Assembly: GCA_002724555.1 (NCBI GenBank)
Contig: PBOZ01000030.1
Span: forward strand, 7,799 to 71,798
Direction: 5' to 3'
From: Rickettsiales bacterium
Lineage (GTDB): Bacteria > Pseudomonadota > Alphaproteobacteria > UBA8366
Length of the DNA: 64,000 nucleotides
A model generated the notes under the pieces. It did no database searches. It saw only the letters and a list, made by a program, of their open reading frames with translations, and was not told the DNA's origin. Position numbers and translations under genes: made by a program. Positions 1,375-12,599 of the stretch are shown piece after piece (position 1 is the stretch's first letter; every line of letters begins with the position of its first letter).

Positions 1375-2421
<1,047 letters not shown>

Positions 2422-2461
2422 AACACTCAAAATTTTCACAATTTAATGCTCAGGCGATATC

Positions 2462-3346
2462 GTGCCGGAAAATACAGGACCTAAAGTACGAACAGCAGCT
2501 CCACTGCGCGGATTTGCGCAGAGATGTGTTTTGTTGTTTTTACTTAGCGCATCTATCGGGCTTTTAATGCTTGGTCGGATGGACACTACGCTTCTCGAAG
2601 AGGCACGTATAGCACTCACTGATTCCACAGCCCCCATTCTTGAAGCACTATCTCGTCCAGCGGCAACTATCTCCGACATCGTTGGTAACGTGCGAGAGCT
2701 CACAAATTTGAGACAGGATAACTTAGCACTTAAGGCAGAAAATGCGCGCCTCTTGCAATGGCAACAGGTAGCAAGAACGCTTTTGGCTGAAAACGATCAG
2801 CTGCGAACGCTTATGAATTTTACGAGCGATGCCGTCGTCAAATCAGTTGTCGGACGAGTTATCGGCGATACCAGCGGTCCTTTTATTCGAAGCCTGTTGG
2901 TGAATGCGGGTCTTCGAGAAGGCGTCAAACCTGGCCATGCCGCCGTAACGGCGGGCGGCTTACTCGGACGCGTGGCATCTGCCGGTGAACGATCGTCGCG
3001 CATCTTGTTGATTAGCGACTTGAACAGTCGCATTCCTGTTCTAATCGAAAGCACTAGAGCCCGAGCCATGCTGACCGGCGACAATACACGCCGGCCACGC
3101 CTAACATTTTTTTCCGCAAATATTGAAATCGGAATCGGTTCACGTATCGCGACATCCGGCCATGGAGGTATGTTTCCAACCGGTATCGCCATAGGGACGG
3201 TAACTGAAATTGGAGATGCTGGCATCCGAATCGAGCCGTTCTCAAGCCCAGATCAATTAGAATATGTCCGCCTGGTGGACTTTGGTCTTAACGGGATTAT
3301 AAGCGAAAAGCAAACATCCCAATCACAGAGATTCGGCACTCCATAA
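2462..3346 (+). CDS. mreC: Rod shape-determining protein MreC
   Basis: N-terminal TM helix, coiled coil (LRQDNLALKAEN), TSGHGGMFPTG beta domain; follows mreB. Confidence 0.95.
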   Translation: MPENTGPKVRTAAPLRGFAQRCVLLFLLSASIGLLMLGRMDTTLLEEARIALTDSTAPILEALSRPAATISDIVGNVRELTNLRQDNLALKAENARLLQWQQVARTLLAENDQLRTLMNFTSDAVVKSVVGRVIGDTSGPFIRSLLVNAGLREGVKPGHAAVTAGGLLGRVASAGERSSRILLISDLNSRIPVLIESTRARAMLTGDNTRRPRLTFFSANIEIGIGSRIATSGHGGMFPTGIAIGTVTEIGDAGIRIEPFSSPDQLEYVRLVDFGLNGIISEKQTSQSQRFGTP

Positions 3347-3861
3347 TGAGGACGGCGGTCTGGCAAAGCCTGGACATTGCCGCACGCAAGTTCACACCAT
3401 TTCTGGTTGCACTTGCCCTTGTAATCGTCAATCTGGTTCCGCTGCATCTACCGGGATATGCAACCATCTCACCGGACCTAGTGCTCATGGCCGTTTATTA
3501 TTGGGCACTACACCGACCTTCACTGATGCCCGCGATTGCAGTATTTATTCTTGGCTTGTTTCAAGATTTTCTCTCGGGCGGTCCAATTGGACTGAGCGCC
3601 GGATCACTCATCTTAGTATTTGCCGTCGCCGTTTCACAAGCCCGTTTCTTTTATGGTAAATCCTTCCTTGTCGTATGGTGGGGCTTTATGATGGTGTCGG
3701 TCGGCGTGGGCATCATTCAGTGGAGTGTAGCCTGCATTTTCTTAGGAAGGTTAATATCGCCGGATCCCGCTTTATTTGAATGCGCGATGAATATCGCTGC
3801 CTATCCAATCTTAGGTTGGCTGTTTTTCCAGATACACCGCACTCTTCCTGCTGGAGATTAA
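3346..3861 (+). CDS. mreD: Rod shape-determining protein MreD
   Basis: Hydrophobic 171 aa with PDL..YW and GLFQD motifs; TAATG overlap with mreC. Confidence 0.93.
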   Translation: MRTAVWQSLDIAARKFTPFLVALALVIVNLVPLHLPGYATISPDLVLMAVYYWALHRPSLMPAIAVFILGLFQDFLSGGPIGLSAGSLILVFAVAVSQARFFYGKSFLVVWWGFMMVSVGVGIIQWSVACIFLGRLISPDPALFECAMNIAAYPILGWLFFQIHRTLPAGD

Positions 3862-3867
3862 ATAGAA

Positions 3868-5721
3868 ATGCAGCTGGAAAAACTGCGCTACAAAGCTTTT
3901 GGTCGACGGGCGGCTGTGCTGGGAATTGCCAAACTCCTCCTCTTAGGAGGTCTATGCGGCCGCTTGTATTATCTGCAGGTCGTTGAATCTAAGCGTTATA
4001 AGATGTTGGCTGATGAGAATCGAATCAACTTACGGCTCTTGGTACCGCCGCGCGGTCATATCGTTGACCGGTACGGCGCGCCGCTCGCCGTGAACATCCA
4101 GAACTACCGTGTCGTTATGGTGCCAGAGCAGGCGCTCAACGTCGAAGAATCATTAGCGCGCTTAAAAACCATCGTAGAGATCAGTGAGTATGATCGTCGC
4201 AACGTTCTGAAGGAGGCCCGCCGCCGTCGAGCCTTCATGCCGATTACTGTTCGTGAAAACTTGGAATGGGACGAAGTGAGTCGGATAGAGGTCAATGCCC
4301 CAGATTTACCGGGAATCAGCATTGATGTTGGCCAGTCGCGTTATTACCCCAACGGTAAAGTCGCCGCACATGTGGTGGGGTACGTATCCGCAGTTTCCGA
4401 AAAGGATTTAACCGGCGACCCTTTGCTTGAATTGCCCGGTTACCGGATCGGCAAAAACGGCATCGAACGCCAACATGAACTGGAGCTTCGGGGCACGGCA
4501 GGTAGCAGTCAAGTCGAAGTTAACGCCGTAGGCCGAATCATCAAGGAGCTTAAACGAACCGAGGGCAGACCCGGGCAACGTGTGGTTCTTACCCTGAGCT
4601 TAAACTTACAAAAATTTATCACCGAGCGGATCGCTCGCTATAGGCGCGCGTCGGTTGTCGTCATTGACGTTCGCTCGGGTGAAATTTTATCGATGGTGTC
4701 AGTCCCTGCCTTTGACCCCAACGGTTTTAATCTTGGCCTCGACGCAAAAGCATGGAATGCACTTGCAGAAAACTCGGATGCACCGCTAAACAACAAGGCT
4801 ATTTCCGGACAGTACGCTCCCGGCTCTACTTACAAAATCGCTGTTATGCTAGCCGCACTAGAACATGGTATTTCTCCTGATCATAATGTTTTCTGCACCG
4901 GCTTTAGCGAACTCGGCAGCCAGCGTTTCCACTGTTGGCACAAGCACGGACACGGTTTGGTATCGATGATTGATGCGATGCGTGAATCCTGCGACGTGTA
5001 TTTCTATGAGCTCGCACTAAAACTTGGCGTCGATCGCATCGCGCAAACCGCACGAAAACTGGGCCTGGGAGAAACTTTAGACCTCGAGCTGCCCGGTGAG
5101 AAGAATGGCTTAATCCCAACTCGGGCTTGGAAACAAAAGCACTTTGGAAAATCCTGGCTCAAGGGAGAAACCTTGGTTGCCGCAATTGGTCAGGGTTACG
5201 TGTTGACTACACCTCTTCAGCTCGCCGTTATGACGGCCCGTTGCGTCAACGGCGGGTACGCGGTGATGCCAAAGCTCACGCGCGATGCAATCGATGAGGG
5301 CAGCGACAGAGCAAATGCCGCAGATTTTCCGCCGGTTGGTATTTCAGCCCGGTCGCGGCAAATACTGATGCATTCACTTGACGAAGCTATGAACCATCCA
5401 CGCGGCACCGCCTATAGGTCCCGCATTTCTGAACCGGGCCGCGTCGCTGGCGGTAAAACTGGAACGGCTCAGGTTCGTCGAATTACGATGATCGAACGTG
5501 AAAGCGGGGTTAAAAAGAACAAAGAAAAGCCATGGCGTGAGCGCGACCATTCGTTGTTCGTCGGATACGCTCCGGTTGATCAACCGCGCTATGCAGTGTC
5601 TGTCGTAGTCGAACACAGCGGCGGCGGTTCGAGGACTGCCGCTCCGATCGCCCACGATGTACTAAAGGAAGTTCAGCGCCTATACGCGCCCAGTCAATTA
5701 GCGAAACGCGGAGCATCTTAA
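3868..5721 (+). CDS. mrdA: Penicillin-binding protein 2
   Basis: PGSTYK (SxxK), SCDVYFY and KTGTAQ transpeptidase motifs; operon position. Confidence 0.96.
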   Translation: MQLEKLRYKAFGRRAAVLGIAKLLLLGGLCGRLYYLQVVESKRYKMLADENRINLRLLVPPRGHIVDRYGAPLAVNIQNYRVVMVPEQALNVEESLARLKTIVEISEYDRRNVLKEARRRRAFMPITVRENLEWDEVSRIEVNAPDLPGISIDVGQSRYYPNGKVAAHVVGYVSAVSEKDLTGDPLLELPGYRIGKNGIERQHELELRGTAGSSQVEVNAVGRIIKELKRTEGRPGQRVVLTLSLNLQKFITERIARYRRASVVVIDVRSGEILSMVSVPAFDPNGFNLGLDAKAWNALAENSDAPLNNKAISGQYAPGSTYKIAVMLAALEHGISPDHNVFCTGFSELGSQRFHCWHKHGHGLVSMIDAMRESCDVYFYELALKLGVDRIAQTARKLGLGETLDLELPGEKNGLIPTRAWKQKHFGKSWLKGETLVAAIGQGYVLTTPLQLAVMTARCVNGGYAVMPKLTRDAIDEGSDRANAADFPPVGISARSRQILMHSLDEAMNHPRGTAYRSRISEPGRVAGGKTGTAQVRRITMIERESGVKKNKEKPWRERDHSLFVGYAPVDQPRYAVSVVVEHSGGGSRTAAPIAHDVLKEVQRLYAPSQLAKRGAS

Positions 5722-6872
5722 TGATCAGCCGTGACACTATTAATCCGGCTGTTATGACACTCGGCCAGCGACTTTGGCATTTGAACTGGTTTCTCATTCT
5801 TCTGATCTGCGCACTCGCAAGCGTCGGCTTCATGATGCTATATTCAGCTGGTAATGGCAGCTATTCGCCCTGGGCGGAGCGGCAAATGCTTCGATTTGGG
5901 CTCGGAATGTGTATCATGTTGGCGATTGCGTTGACGGATATCCGAATTTGGCTCAAATATGCATATTTATTCTATGCCGGTTCCTTGATCATGTTGATTG
6001 CCGTAGAGGCTGTCGGTACCGTGGGCATGGGTGCACAGAGATGGATCGACCTCAAAGTGTTTCACCTACAGCCGTCAGAATTAATGAAAATCGCATTAGT
6101 ACTGGCATTAGCACGTTATTTCCATGGATTGAGCTTAGACGAAGTTGCACGCCCGACCTACCTCGTTTTACCCACTCTTTTGGTAGCTGCACCTATAGCC
6201 TTGGTAATGCGCCAACCAGATCTTGGGACTTCCCTTTTATTACTCATGGGAAGCGGCGCGATGTTTTTCCTCGCCGGTGTACGTATGTGGAAATTTGTCT
6301 TGGTGGGCTTAACCTGCTTGTCCGCAATTCCAGTCATTTGGTCAATGCTGCATGTCTACCAGAAAAAGAGGATCATGACTTTCCTCTCACCTGAGAGTGA
6401 TCCCCTTGGCGCTGGTTATCATGCGTTGCAGTCATTTATAGCTCTTGGCTCGGGCGGCGTATCGGGCAAAGGCTTCCTGAAAGGAACGCAAAGCCACCTC
6501 TCTTTCCTGCCCGAGATGCAGACGGACTTTATCTTTACCATGTACGCAGAAGAGTTCGGTTTGATTGGCGGGATATTACTTTTGGCGCTTTACACAATAG
6601 TGGTGGCCTACACCTTCGCCATTGCAATGCGCTCACGCAATCATTTCGGACGGCTCGTTTGTATGGGTATCGCGACTATGTTTTTCCTCTACTTCTTCGT
6701 TAATATTGCGATGGTCACTGGCCTTACACCTGTCGTTGGTGTCCCGCTTCCACTCATCTCTTACGGCGGCACCGCCATGATGACTGTTTTGATCGGCTTT
6801 GGACTAGTTATGAACGTCTCTATACACCGGGATATGCTTATTAGCCGCCATGGTGAAGTTTCAAATACGTAA
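5721..6872 (+). CDS. rodA: Rod shape-determining SEDS protein RodA
   Basis: GAQRWI, QPSELMK, QPDLGT, TDFIF and PLISYGG SEDS motifs; coupled to mrdA. Confidence 0.96.
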   Translation: MISRDTINPAVMTLGQRLWHLNWFLILLICALASVGFMMLYSAGNGSYSPWAERQMLRFGLGMCIMLAIALTDIRIWLKYAYLFYAGSLIMLIAVEAVGTVGMGAQRWIDLKVFHLQPSELMKIALVLALARYFHGLSLDEVARPTYLVLPTLLVAAPIALVMRQPDLGTSLLLLMGSGAMFFLAGVRMWKFVLVGLTCLSAIPVIWSMLHVYQKKRIMTFLSPESDPLGAGYHALQSFIALGSGGVSGKGFLKGTQSHLSFLPEMQTDFIFTMYAEEFGLIGGILLLALYTIVVAYTFAIAMRSRNHFGRLVCMGIATMFFLYFFVNIAMVTGLTPVVGVPLPLISYGGTAMMTVLIGFGLVMNVSIHRDMLISRHGEVSNT

Positions 6873-6965: not shown

Positions 6966-7754
6966 ATGCCTGACACCTCGAACACCGAAAACCTTGTCAC
7001 CTACACATCCAAAAATCAGATCGCGACGATCACGATCAATCGGCCGGACAAACTAAATGCATTATCGAACGGTGTCGTCGCACAGCTTCGCGATGCAATG
7101 TTGCGCCTCCAGGCAAGCAACGACATGTGTGCGATAGTCACCGCGACAGGCGACCGTGCTTTCTCAGTAGGGGCGGATTTACGGGATCCGCCGCGCGACC
7201 CCCAACTCTGGGAATGCATGCCCGGTGTTGGAGTTGATGTCGACAAACCGCTGGTGGCTGCAGTCTCGGGTTATTGCGTCGGCGGAGCCTTCTGCCTAGT
7301 TCAATTCTGCGATTTTGCCGTCGCCTCTGAAAGCGCCGATTTCTTTTATCCGGAAGCCCAGATTGGTTTCTGTGGAGGTTTGATTGCCGGCCTTGCAGCC
7401 CGGCTACCCCATAAGGTCGCCATGGAGTTCATGCTAACCGGCAAACATTTTAGCGCCGCGCGCGCCTATGAAGTTGGCATGGTGAATAAAGTCGTGCCGG
7501 TTGGCGAGCAAGTAAACGCAGCAATGGAATATGCCGAGATAATGAGAAATAGCGCCCCAATGGTGGTGCGCACCGTCAAACGCTTCGTGCGCGACACAGT
7601 CATCAACCGCGGACCATCCGAACAAAGTGCCCTGGCCCAACGCGAACTACTCTCGATTAGCCGTGGTGAAGATCAACAGGAAGGCGGGCGCGCCTTTAAA
7701 GAAAAACGTAAACCCATCTTCAAAGAAGATTGGAATAAGCCGCCCCTATCGTAA
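6966..7754 (+). CDS. Enoyl-CoA hydratase/isomerase family protein
   Basis: NRPDKLNAL, AFSVGADL, PEAQIG and EGGRAFKEKRKP crotonase motifs. Confidence 0.9.
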   Translation: MPDTSNTENLVTYTSKNQIATITINRPDKLNALSNGVVAQLRDAMLRLQASNDMCAIVTATGDRAFSVGADLRDPPRDPQLWECMPGVGVDVDKPLVAAVSGYCVGGAFCLVQFCDFAVASESADFFYPEAQIGFCGGLIAGLAARLPHKVAMEFMLTGKHFSAARAYEVGMVNKVVPVGEQVNAAMEYAEIMRNSAPMVVRTVKRFVRDTVINRGPSEQSALAQRELLSISRGEDQQEGGRAFKEKRKPIFKEDWNKPPLS

Positions 7755-7825: not shown

Positions 7826-7902
7826 GAGCGTATAGCTCAGTTAGCAATTCCGCTGACTTTGGAAATAAGAGTTCCAAAGTTCGAGCCCTTGTACGCTCAT
7901 CA
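7826..7902 (+). pseudogene. Degenerate full-length tRNA-like element (tRNA-Lys-derived pseudo-tRNA)
   Basis: Perfect 7-bp acceptor stem GAGCGTA/TACGCTC, then A-TCA where ACCA is expected. TAGCTCAGTT A-box start. GCTGACT matches the tRNA-Lys anticodon 5' arm. T arm is CAAAG-TTCGAGC-CCTTG. D-stem and anticodon-stem 3' strands no longer pair. Confidence 0.75.
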
Positions 7903-8080
7903 TGTTTAATAATTTAAACACGAATTTAATTTTTATGGATGTAGTGGTTGCTGAGGCTTCGAATGGGATGATTGTTAATTTGGGCGACGATTTAAACCAG
8001 AAACGCGCAAATTCATAGGTTTGTATCTTGCTGTCTTTGGCCGGTGTGAGCAGAATTCGGGACGTAAGGAGCCGAACACG

Positions 8081-9322
8081 ATGGCAAAATTAAGTGACTT
8101 CGACGAAATTGGTCGCGACTTCTACGAGTCGATGCCGATGCCCGAGTTTACTTACACACCTTGGGTAGTGCCTAAACCCATCGCTAAAGCGCGCGTCGCG
8201 ATTATCTCCACTGCAGGCCTGCAACTACGGGGGGACAGACCTTTTTCAGTTAATTCGACAGACTACCGAATTTTACCGAGTAATGCTTCGTCTGCGGATC
8301 TCGTAATGAGCCACATTTCAATCAATTTTGACCGAAGCGGCTTTCAAAAAGATCACAATGTTGCGTTGCCAATTGACCGGCTTAATGAGTTTGTTGCAGA
8401 TGGCAAGATCGGCTCGGCCGCCGCCTTTCATTACTCATTCATGGGGGCAACGCACCCAGATAAATTAGAGTATGCTGCTAATCAACTTGCTGATGTTCTC
8501 AAGAAAGATCATGTCGATTCAGTTCTGTTAGTGCCAATTTGACCAGCTTGCACGCGCGCCGTGGGCGGGCTCAGCCACTATCTAGAACGCGCCGGTTTTG
8601 CGACAGCAGGGATAAGTCTGATCCGACTGCACAGCGAAAGAATTCATCCGCCTAGGGCGCTTTGGGTACCGTTCGAACTTGGGCGCCCGTTTGGTGTTCC
8701 CCACAACGCAGCTTTTCAAACTCGCGTTTTGCAGAAACTGATAGATTTGTTCGATAGTTCTGAGGGTCCAGTGCTTGTAGATTACCCAGAAGATGCGCCG
8801 AGTAGTGGGTCCAAGGATATGGGGGGACTTGTCTGTCCAGTACAGTTTGATGCTTCTAACATTGAAGACGAAACGTTAGAAATGGCGGTAAACCGTGAAA
8901 TCATCGAATTGTTTCCTTGGTATGACCTCGCCCGTAAGCGGCGCCAGCGCACTACCGTCGGTGTGACAGGACTGGGAATAGAAGAGGTTGCTCGTGCTCT
9001 ATCTAGGTGGTTGACTTCGTCTCCGCCAGAGGACGTCGTAAATGATCAAACGCCAGCCGCCATGTTGAAACTCGCCGTTGAAGATTTGCGGGCATTTTAC
9101 TTTGAGGCCGCGGCTGGCCAGCCACACGGAGATTCAATCAGCAGCAAACAACTCGCTGATTGGTTCTGGGGTGAGACATCTGCAGCCAAACTGCTTTTGG
9201 CTTTGCGTGAGCGCCTTATCCTCGATGAAGATCCCGCGTTACAAATGTTAGGCCACAACAGCTTAGTTCCGCGGGAGCAGTGGACACGCTTCAACATTGA
9301 TGACCGCTGGTGGAATGATTGA
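8081..9322 (+). CDS. Selenoprotein of the glycine/sarcosine/betaine/D-proline reductase B (PrdB/GrdB) family with a C-terminal extension; Sec (UGA) at 8540-8542, codon 154
   Basis: ATG at 8081 with an AAGGAG RBS. ORFs 8021..8542 and 8561..9322 are in the same frame and joined by TGA CCA GCT TGC, giving VPI-U-PAC-TRAVGGLSHYLERAG. PrdB-like motifs lie on both sides (VAIISTAG, NVALPIDRL, HYSFMG; PPRALWVPFELGRPFG). Confidence 0.85.
8546..8575 (+). promoter_or_regulatory. Putative bacterial SECIS element
   Basis: Apical stem CGCC(8557-8560)/GGCG(8564-8567) closes a GUG loop that begins 19 nt after the UGA. A bulged lower stem GC(8554-5)/GC(8569-70) and GCU(8546-8)/AGC(8573-5) was folded by eye. 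Confidence 0.6.
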
Positions 9323-9673
9323 ATTGATCTGCTCTTCGAATTAATCGCGTCACTTTTCCTTAAAGCGATCTGCCTTTAACCATTAACTGGTGAATATAAC
9401 GAATAACCTATCTGCTAAGGGTAACTATTTAGGTGATTGAACACCGTAACAGGACTATCCGCACGTTCAGCCTATTTATTGAATAATTTACAAGATCTGG
9501 TACGCAAGGGATGGCTGAATAACAGACCATCATGAAGAATCGCAGTCCCGAGACAAGAGCAAGACCTTTTGACAGCCGCAAGTGTTGGAAAACAAATCCT
9601 TAGGATCCGCAAGAGAGGCGATCGCCTCTGGTCTGTTCTGTTGGTCACAGTAAAGGCAGCAACGCGTCACTGA

Positions 9674-11756: not shown

Positions 11757-12599
11757 TTAAACGACAGGGCTTCCGGCAATTTGGATACGCCGCATCAGAC
11801 GCTCCGCATGACGGACATCGTGGACGGCAATATGCTTGACGCACCTGTTATCCCAGAACGCAAGCGATCCTTTCTCCCAGCGAAAGCGGCAAGTAATTTC
11901 CGGGCGGTGGCCCCACTCCATGAGCCAATCGAGAAGTGGTGCACTCTCTTGCTCCGTCATCCCCTCAAATGCAACTGAATAGGAATGATTGACAAAAAGA
12001 CATTTCCGGCCTGTTTCCGGATGAGTGCGAATCACGGGATGGCTGTTCTTCGTCTCTCGCCATGCATCGTCGAGGCGGACAGCGGTGGACCGTTTGAATT
12101 TAGCTACCCGCGAACCCGGACCAGCAACCTTACGGTCGGTATGAATGCAACGCATTTCGCCAAGCAATGCCTTCATGCCTTCGGAGAGGCTTTCATAAGC
12201 GAGATACTGATTGGCAAAGAGCGTATCTCCACCATAATCTGGCACATCAAGGGCATAAAGTAAGGCACCCATCGGCGGCTCTGCCATCATCGTTGTGTCA
12301 GTGTGCCAATCCTCGCCGACGATCAACTCGTCCGTTGGCTTCCGATGGATGGTCACTACTTCCGGGTCATGGTCGCCCGTATTAAAGTTGGGGTGAATAA
12401 AGATTTCGCCAAACCGCCTTGCCAGGCATTTGTGCTGTTCGATGCTAATCTCCTGATCACGAAAGAAGATGACGCAGTAATCCAGTAAAGCTTGGCGAAT
12501 CTCTGCAATTACGTTTGCACTCAAATTTTTGCCAAGATCGACGCCAGAAATCACCGCCCCGATGGCGCTGGAAAGTGGCTTAATAGAGATTGTTGTCAT
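11757..12599 (-). CDS. TauD/TfdA family 2-oxoglutarate-dependent dioxygenase
   Basis: WHTD, GGDTLF, HPVIRTHPETGRK and WDNRCVKH motifs. Confidence 0.93.
   Translation of the reverse strand: MTTISIKPLSSAIGAVISGVDLGKNLSANVIAEIRQALLDYCVIFFRDQEISIEQHKCLARRFGEIFIHPNFNTGDHDPEVVTIHRKPTDELIVGEDWHTDTTMMAEPPMGALLYALDVPDYGGDTLFANQYLAYESLSEGMKALLGEMRCIHTDRKVAGPGSRVAKFKRSTAVRLDDAWRETKNSHPVIRTHPETGRKCLFVNHSYSVAFEGMTEQESAPLLDWLMEWGHRPEITCRFRWEKGSLAFWDNRCVKHIAVHDVRHAERLMRRIQIAGSPVV

Follow-up and report, generated by a model that had tools for sequence, protein, structure and literature searches.

Background

PrdB of D-proline reductase and GrdB of glycine reductase are listed in reviews as selenoproteins with the motif U-x-x-C, in which U is selenocysteine (Sec). 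In the accessible part of one source, glycine and D-proline reductase are described as working by selenolate attack, after which a selenenylsulfide is formed (PMC10298544). Related sequences have been counted repeatedly in sea water. The Sargasso Sea survey ranked 'proline reductase (PrdB)' third in abundance among known selenoprotein families, with 42 Sec genes and 1 cysteine (Cys) homologue (Zhang, Fomenko and Gladyshev 2005, PMC1088965). For the Global Ocean Sampling data the count was 235 Sec genes and 110 Cys homologues, assigned to pfam07355 and carrying U-x-x-C (Zhang and Gladyshev 2008, PMC2398784), and in a later marine survey the PrdB family made up 6.4% of selenoprotein genes (Xu et al. 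2021, PMC9402790). Five 'proline reductase' selenoproteins are ascribed to the Olavius Delta-1 symbiont in the part available of another report (PMC1976440). The present analysis concerns a gene of this superfamily at positions 8081–9322 of a 64,000-nucleotide (nt) stretch of DNA (contig PBOZ01000030.1, positions 7,799 to 71,798, assembly GCA_002724555.1 of a Rickettsiales bacterium), called the window below. The source is a metagenome-assembled genome (MAG) of 2.56 Mb in 110 contigs, 64.9% complete.

The gene belongs to a selenoprotein family long known from marine metagenomes, and the family itself is not new. An initial annotation, made from the letters of the window, had called it a hidden selenoprotein. 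The term fits in so far as gene callers cut the gene in two; it does not fit the family, which, going by the accessible texts, has been present in marine selenoproteome surveys since 2005. No functional study of a non-clostridial member was found in the literature, subscription journals and supplements being outside the scope of the search. Within the same scope, 'PrdB-like' was unused as a term and 'GrdB-like' was used only for Synergistota.

Reading frame of the locus

By direct reading of the sequence, one frame runs on the forward strand from ATG 8081 to TGA 9320–9322, and its sole interruption is the TGA at 8540–8542. Calling with translation table 11 yields two open reading frames (ORFs), 8021–8542 and 8561–9322, both in this frame. 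The read-through product would have 413 amino acids (aa), with U as residue 154 and C as residue 157. The peptide across the join reads ...VLLVPI-U-PAC-TRAVGGLSHYLERAGFATAGISL, i.e. U154-P-A-C157-TRAVGG.... Only the first ATG has a good ribosome-binding site (RBS), and it lines up with the M-[AV]-R-L start of the homologues; the 18 nt before GTG 8561, the start of the second called ORF, hold no Shine-Dalgarno-like purine run. The initial annotation had described the two ORFs in one frame, the single TGA between them, the AAGGAG before ATG 8081 and the lack of an obvious RBS at the GTG, and the sequence and the ORF list agree with it on all of these.

All six frames of the 64-kb window were scanned for TGA codons flanked by 40 or more open codons on the 5' side and 25 or more on the 3' side, with Cys, Ser or Thr nearby. 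The scan gave 48 matches, and the locus at 8540 was by far the longest (187 + 259 codons). Two other candidates were translated and set aside, as both resembled non-coding frames.

Conservation of the in-frame UGA

Genomes, one per species, were scanned with the patterns WVPF[EDQ]LGRP, which is neutral as to the Sec codon, and PVCP[NR]CT[RC]A, which favours a Cys codon. At least 561 stretches encoding relatives were found, and the best 80 loci, chosen by protein similarity, were used. As the patterns were neutral or favoured Cys, the selection of loci was not biased toward TGA. The aligned codon was TGA in 84 of 84 copies at these loci, which come from many phyla (MAG labels include Hyphomicrobiaceae, Rhodopila, Rhodospirillaceae, Geobacter, Desulfobacterales, Entotheonella, Dehalococcoidia, Binatia, Betaproteobacteria, Gammaproteobacteria and the Olavius-associated Delta 1 bacterium). 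The Hyphomicrobiaceae copies, 75–79% identical to the window protein, are likely orthologues. A whole-genome search of 41 related genomes gave matches in 33, and each of the 65 strong matches (E up to 4.2e-68) holds exactly one TGA.

Cys was found at the site in rare or more distant full-length relatives (P0023, P0032 and P0058 with 'CPGCTRDG'; P0093 with 'CPACTRAV'). C-x-x-C was carried by 17 of the 19 representatives examined, and the remaining two were aberrant. The in-frame UGA is kept in orthologues and replaced by Cys in some homologues, which is a pattern that marks selenoprotein genes. The initial annotation had proposed a comparison of codon 154 among homologues and had named a TGA unique to this strain as an argument against Sec; the codon turned out to be shared across many phyla and among the 41 relatives.

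The protein reference list held 77 sequences; L066, L071 and L075 were left out for an N or a second stop in the range, and L078 as a duplicate of L012. From these references 30 were picked for diversity (alignment A2). The 30 aligned sequences were 46–79% identical to the window protein and had 59 invariant columns, which lie on both sides of the TGA.

A candidate hairpin 3' of the UGA

The window and the 84 copies (85 sequences, −60 to +210 nt around the TGA) were aligned without gaps in codon register, and third-position entropy was computed among the sequences sharing the consensus residue. A candidate selenocysteine insertion sequence (SECIS) begins shortly downstream of the UGA (Table 1). 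In the window its 6-bp stem is made of G8554-C8570, C8555-G8569, C8557-G8567, G8558-C8566 and C8559-G8565, with a mismatch at G8556/G8568, and closes on the loop C-G-U-G-G (8560–8564). Numbered from the U of UGA as 1, the family consensus is G15-C31, C16-G30, G17-S29, C18-G28, G19-C27 and C20-G26 with the loop N21-G22-U23-N24-N25, of which G22 and U23 are invariant (85/85 sequences).

Synonymous variation collapses at the stem codons +4 (Thr, 0.42 bits), +5 (Arg, 0.38 bits), +6 (Ala, 0.63 bits), +8 (Gly, 0.49 bits) and +9 (Gly, 0.15 bits), while the loop codon +7 (Val, 1.55 bits) and the flanking codons +1 (Pro, 1.75 bits) and +10 (Leu, 1.71 bits) vary freely. The other four-fold sites of the stretch mostly lie at 1.5–1.98 bits. 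In alignment A3, the stem cells were paired in 89.4% of cases and four of the six pairs were changed on both sides, a degree of pairing and covariation matched by none of 500 shuffles. When the 3' partner was slid by 1–3 columns, pairing was at most 66.1%. Compensatory changes include A-U and C-G in place of C-G and G-C (L099) and U-A in place of G-C (L109). RNAalifold, run on the 85 sequences, recovered the stem only in part. Since folding of the single sequence was not significant, the hairpin is argued from the comparative evidence, on which a SECIS stem-loop of the kind expected downstream of a Sec codon is predicted here.

Selenocysteine machinery

The source MAG has a gene for tRNA-Sec (Rfam, 79.8 bits with a cut-off of 47; ARAGORN, tRNA-SeC with anticodon tca). 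selA was present in all five same-genus genomes searched, and selD, selA and selB in all five near-complete genomes searched of the same family. Among the 41 relatives, selA was detected in 26 of 30 genomes with the long TGA-containing family and in 1 of 11 without it; the four long-family genomes without selA are 65, 75, 92 and 94% complete. As related genomes are not independent, this co-occurrence is a pattern and not a test.

The tRNA-Sec gene (L006:1497-1591, reverse strand, equal to C64:5603-5693) is solitary, with no selB-like ORF overlapping or adjoining it within the 3 kb examined. It differs in this from the arrangement of selC inside selB that is known from some alphaproteobacteria, going by the accessible part of a review citing Mukai 2021. 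In two relatives, selD itself contains an in-frame TGA (G022:C1:990879-991805 and G008:C2:1344342-1345265; L023 and L024), so that SelD is predicted to contain Sec there. The five near-complete relatives have a second selD-like match within a much longer open frame (763–819 aa).

Protein architecture

The match to PF07355 (GRDB, Pfam) passes the threshold (37.3 bits, cut-off 22; residues 11–151), as it does in three relatives. The alignment covers the profile up to position 345 of 347 and ends with residue 151, three short of U154. The best NCBIfam match is TIGR04483 (D-proline reductase PrdB; E 6e-27), in which residues 24–221 align with profile positions 19–215; it crosses the TGA site and covers the U154-P-A-C157 motif. 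The score of 94.6 is below the curated cut-off of 300. NCBIfam then ranks GrdH, GrdF, a 'various selenoprotein B' subfamily and GrdB. The scores for all four protein B models are far below the cut-offs: 56.3 against 775 (GrdH, NF040795), 50.5 against 800 (GrdF, NF040794), 47.6 against 65.45 ('various selenoprotein B', TIGR01918) and 37.9 against 602.2 (GrdB, TIGR01917). Residues 11–204 fit only the C-terminal half of these models of 431–435 positions (about 197 to 403).

Residues from about 236 to 413 gave no match to Pfam or NCBIfam at E up to 10. That this part is a circularly permuted N-terminal half of GrdB, or a PrdA/GrdE-like domain, was considered and rejected as far as hidden Markov models (HMMs) reach, no match being found. 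Its motifs are an invariant Cys252 in [WLM]-x-C-P and the conserved PWY and DWFW. Searches of the PDB with the protein and with its profile gave chance-level matches only, and no solved structure was detectable by sequence.

The predicted architecture is a PrdB/GrdB-superfamily domain followed by an unnamed conserved C-terminal domain of about 180 aa, and judged by its profile scores the protein is not an orthologue of PrdB or GrdB. The 'PrdB/GrdB-like' of the initial annotation holds for the superfamily domain and the U-x-x-C motif. It does not extend to orthology (94.6 against 300 for PrdB, 37.9 against 602 for GrdB), given the extra C-terminal domain and a PrdA/GrdE partner that was not found.

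Public reads and protein collections

Parts of the window are present in marine metagenome runs from several studies; marine runs with a share under 0.2 were not used. A 198-nt contig from a marine run other than the best holder covers 8425–8622 with zero differences, TGA and hairpin included. In two metatranscriptome libraries, contigs cover 8828–9301 and 9090–9374, also with zero differences, which is a weak hint of expression. Positions 7900–8409 were uncovered in all four runs, and no conclusion was drawn from the gaps.

Two marine DNA runs contain short contigs whose match is confined to the 34-nt hairpin stretch 8548–8581, with 3 differences, and whose depth (12.7 to 53) exceeds that of the neighbouring contigs. 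One of them (X3) diverges from the window upstream, where it, too, reads ...TGACC.... Other members of the family in the sea evidently share the hairpin stretch at the nucleotide level.

In a first protein collection, 115 of the 120 best matches were fragments of about 250 aa, which cover 57–61% of the query and are mostly unnamed or hypothetical. In a second, about 124 of the 150 best representatives were fragments of about 245 aa that start at profile positions 156–197, mostly 161–162; the profile search of this collection returned 3710 proteins at E up to 1e-3, 2110 at 1e-10 and 586 at 1e-30. The C-terminal fragments arise because callers start at the GTG of Val161, which is the G-U-G of the hairpin loop. 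In public collections this gene, along with hundreds of its kind, appears as a 'hypothetical protein' of about 245 aa and a stub of about 153 aa, and metabolic and proteomic analyses of these marine bacteria consequently miss one of their commonest selenoproteins.

Proposed mechanism and its weighing

During translation, UGA 8540–8542 would be decoded as Sec to give the 413-aa protein, and the hairpin at 8554–8570 of the mRNA would recruit SelB carrying Sec-tRNA(Sec). The conservation of TGA, the Cys relatives, the hairpin and the tRNA-Sec gene support this reading of the UGA, which the initial annotation had put forward. The N-terminal two-thirds of the protein would carry the selenol/thiol pair U154-P-A-C157. 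If glycine and D-proline reductase are a guide, the U154 selenolate would most likely attack a carbon or heteroatom of the substrate; the adduct would next be resolved by Cys157 into a selenenylsulfide, which a dithiol donor would re-reduce. The chances that U154 and Cys157 work as such a redox pair are put at even. From the searches of its genome and relatives, the protein appears to act without a pyruvoyl PrdA/GrdE partner. As no such partner was detected and the architecture differs, naming it a proline or glycine reductase is disfavoured.

On comparative grounds, 8081–9322 is very probably a single selenoprotein gene. The explanation as a whole, with one gene, Sec at the UGA, insertion directed by the hairpin and a PrdB-like reductase as the product, is given a probability of about 0.85. 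Several results weigh against it. As a single sequence, the hairpin region is unexceptional in the G+C-rich stretch 8540–8585 (z = 0.40; 131 of 200 shuffles fold equally well or better), and its minimum free energy structure is a different, longer fold in another register. At the third stem pair (17-29), 46 of the 85 sequences have a G/G mismatch, the window included. An Rfam search of 8440–8700 returned no SECIS family and only a chance match (E 5.6). The RNA-library contigs reach only the 3' half of the gene, none of them crosses the TGA, and such libraries can contain DNA. The search for selA, selB, selC and selD proposed in the initial annotation bore fruit in part: the tRNA-Sec gene was found in the MAG itself and selA, selB and selD in relatives, while profile searches detected none of these three above cut-off in the source MAG, at its 65% completeness. 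The case for the absence of PrdA/GrdE and GrdA comes from HMM searches that lacked a positive control, so that these proteins are to be called 'not found' only. The chemistry, finally, is borrowed from the clostridial enzymes by analogy.

A nonsense mutation or an assembly or sequencing error, which would make the locus a pseudogene, would account for a single internal stop, as is typical of a fresh pseudogene, and for a MAG without detectable selA, selB and selD. It would leave unexplained a TGA kept in all 84 copies across phyla and all 65 strong matches in relatives, from many assemblies, as well as the strong conservation of both halves, the identity over 8425–8622 in an independent marine run and the presence of tRNA-Sec; its chance is put at next to nothing. 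A genome-wide reassignment of TGA to an ordinary amino acid, e.g. Trp or Gly, is credited just as little. One database entry (P0086) translates the site as W, but in the window TGA closes 14 of the 54 open frames of at least 200 codons, this gene among them. The homologues that share this TGA are spread over many phyla, the genome encodes a dedicated tRNA-Sec, and a local RNA hairpin, needed for Sec insertion, would be unnecessary for reassignment.

The two halves could also be made as separate polypeptides of 153 aa and 253 aa, the second starting at GTG 8561, and function together as a split protein. Two pieces are what nearly all public gene calls show, the best entries of both collections being mostly C-terminal fragments, and partial termination at the UGA under selenium scarcity is plausible for any selenoprotein gene. 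However, the GTG has no RBS and is the codon of the conserved Val161 within the hairpin loop; the pieces always lie in one frame without a gap; the Cys relatives are single full-length proteins; and the six codons from TGA to GTG, with the invariant Cys157, are conserved at the protein level though a split gene would leave them untranslated. A split protein is accordingly rated very improbable. A little less remote, and still improbable, is a genuine subunit of D-proline reductase (PrdB) or of glycine, sarcosine or betaine reductase (GrdB/F/H) with its partners encoded elsewhere in the genome. The top NCBIfam match to PrdB with GrdH, GrdF and GrdB behind it speaks for such a subunit, as do the U-x-x-C motif, typical of both families, and one source that names Cys relatives 'D-proline reductase (dithiol) PrdB'. 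Against it stand scores that are all far under the curated cut-offs, the lack of matches to PF09338 and PF04723 in five near-complete relatives and the source genome (again without a positive control), and 81 gene contexts in which the only conserved neighbours are sel genes. Moreover, the protein lacks the N-terminal part of GrdB, about 200 aa, and compared with PrdB has an additional C-terminal domain of about 180 aa. A single Sec-containing protein outside the PrdB and GrdB orthologue groups remains the preferred reading.

Table 1. Coordinates of the features at the locus and of the paralogous genes in the source MAG.
Feature	Position	Strand	Basis
Shine-Dalgarno-like AAGGAG, 9 nt spacing to ATG 8081	8066..8071	+	sequence reading
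Predicted single coding sequence, 413 codons plus terminal TGA, PrdB/GrdB-superfamily selenoprotein	8081..9322	+	frame, homology, conservation on both sides of the TGA
PrdB/GrdB-like domain, residues ~11-221	8111..8743	+	matches to Pfam PF07355 and TIGR04483
UGA, predicted to be read as selenocysteine, U154	8540..8542	+	TGA conserved in relatives; Cys in distant full-length ones
TGC, Cys157, partner in U-x-x-C	8549..8551	+	invariant in alignments A1 and A2
Candidate SECIS-type hairpin, 17 nt, begins 11 nt past the UGA	8554..8570	+	synonymous-site constraint and covariation
GTG, Val161, in the hairpin loop; callers' false start of the 'second ORF'	8561..8563	+	ORF calls, database fragments
C-terminal domain, residues ~236-413, no named family, invariant Cys252 (TGT 8834-8836)	8786..9319	+	HMM nulls; conserved in all full-length homologues
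Terminal TGA, serves as stop	9320..9322	+	sequence reading
Long-type paralogue in source MAG, 404 aa, 45% identical	L111:1344-2555	-	TIGR04483, 103.4 bits, below cut-off
Short-type paralogue in source MAG, 298 aa	L112:1272-2165	+	TIGR04483, 126.7 bits, below cut-off
Short-type paralogue in source MAG, 292 aa	L113:1080-1955	+	TIGR04483, 66.4 bits, below cut-off

Gene neighbourhood

In the window, the gene has an enoyl-CoA hydratase (6966–7754) on one side and two glutathione S-transferases, a DUF350 protein and an O2-dependent TauD-family dioxygenase (11757–12599) on the other. This neighbourhood is not conserved, even among the closest orthologues. The cell-shape cluster mreB-mreC-mreD-pbp2-rodA (1381–6872) lies upstream and is unrelated to the selenoprotein gene.

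For comparison across genomes, all ORFs within about 6.5 kb of the gene were clustered (81 contexts). The sole recurrent neighbours were sel genes, with at least one of selD, selA and selB at 11 of 80 loci (L042, L044, L045, L048, L059, L062, L063, L066, L075, L087 and L102). selD was found at nine of the 80 loci, each time above the TIGR00476 cut-off, and the clusters represented by SelB and by SelA at seven loci each. selD stands directly upstream on the same strand at L042, L062, L063 and L075, and in one relative (G038) selA is 2.3 kb from the gene. At L045 and L087, SelD is fused to an N-terminal pyridine-nucleotide-disulfide oxidoreductase (TIGR03169).

No neighbour other than the sel genes occurs in more than six of the 81 contexts, and no substrate could be inferred from them. 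The minor recurring ones are a luciferase-like monooxygenase, a MEDS/helix-turn-helix (HTH) regulator, an ABC ATPase, MurJ, a Cys/Met pyridoxal phosphate enzyme, a 3-hydroxyisobutyrate-dehydrogenase-like protein and an amidase. A cluster present at 35 loci proved to be an antisense ORF overlapping the gene itself and was discarded as an artefact. The MEDS-domain/HTH regulator is on the same strand as the gene at six loci, directly downstream at L080, L084, L106 and L107 and upstream at L051 and L053, at about 0.8 kb downstream or 2.3 kb upstream of the TGA. These loci are labelled Desulfobacteraceae (two) and Desulfobacterales, Desulfoarculaceae, Deltaproteobacteria and Proteobacteria (one each).

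Matches to PF09338 (PrdA/GrdE) were not found in the five near-complete relatives or the source genome, and control genomes were equally negative, so that the search was without a positive control. The same holds for PF04723 (GrdA), with a match in 0 of 5 near-complete relatives and none in the source genome, likewise without a positive control. No PrdA-like recurrent neighbour was present in the 81 contexts.

Paralogues and tandem copies

Long and short forms of the gene coexist in several relatives, with up to nine matching loci per genome. The source MAG has at least three further PrdB-superfamily genes (contigs C109, C51 and C100), each with one in-frame TGA. Its short-type paralogues carry the motif U-P-[VI]-C-H-Q-T and have no C-terminal domain. 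A tandem second copy was seen at four of the 80 loci. Tandem pairs of the long type were noted in several relatives (L083, L091, L095 and L096; G022:C1:319610-322044 and G013:C197:4500-6941), each copy with its own TGA and the second with its hairpin in a different register (GCGCGCGG UCG GUGCGGCCGCGC).

Significance

Interest attaches to a misannotation that persists, to the strictness with which close relatives retain Sec, to the way in which paralogues have multiplied and to the linkage to sel genes. The tight link suggests that the family helps to explain the persistence of the Sec trait in these lineages. 'Proline reductase' has been ranked among the most abundant marine selenoproteins for twenty years, yet PrdA was not found in the relatives (in searches without a positive control) and the architecture is different. 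The role of this Sec enzyme in oxygenated sea water is now a well-posed question.

A speculative and rather doubtful answer is that the long form is a self-contained, PrdA-independent and obligately selenium-dependent reductase, not a proline reductase, whose paralogues reductively cleave different small nitrogen or sulfur compounds, e.g. osmolytes. If so, it would be a main reason for these aerobic or facultative bacteria to retain the Sec machinery despite its cost, and the C-terminal domain would supply the role of PrdA/GrdE, as substrate binding or even a Cys-derived carbonyl.

Comparison with known systems

The candidate hairpin resembles the minimal SECIS of fdhF in Escherichia coli, which Liu, Reches, Groisman and Engelberg-Kulka are said to have defined in 1998 with the same geometry: 17 nt beginning 11 nt after the UGA, and a G and a U in the apical loop. 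It differs at position 17, which is G in the window (G/G mismatch, or G-C in the family) and reportedly a bulged U in fdhF.

GrdB carries the motif U-x-x-C-x-x-C, whereas the window protein reads U-P-x-C-T, with no third Cys. The GrdB/GrdF/GrdH group (PF07355, TIGR01917, NF040794, NF040795) is otherwise like it in that the PF07355 cut-off is exceeded and the C-terminal half aligns. It differs in the N-terminal stretch of about 200 positions of GrdB, which has no counterpart, in scores of 38–56 bits where 602–800 are required, and in GrdA and GrdE, which were not found.

Among the HMMs, the best match is to PrdB of Clostridium sticklandii and Clostridioides difficile (TIGR04483); it spans the Sec site, and the U-x-x-C motif is common to both proteins. 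The differences are the score (94.6 bits against 300), the length (413 aa against an HMM of 238 positions), PrdA (PF09338), which was not found, and the nearby O2-dependent TauD-family dioxygenase, which is ill-suited to the anaerobic setting of the clostridia.

The closest counterpart is the marine 'PrdB' selenoprotein family. In the accessible texts, the surveys treat it simply as proline reductase, and the extra C-terminal domain, the missing PrdA and the long and short subtypes are not mentioned there. The likeness lies in the homology to pfam07355, the U-x-x-C motif with Sec, the marine origin and the far greater frequency of Sec than of Cys, and one of the loci compared here (L077) is from the Olavius-associated Delta 1 bacterium. 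The long subtype, to which the window gene belongs, is likely included in the published marine PrdB counts.

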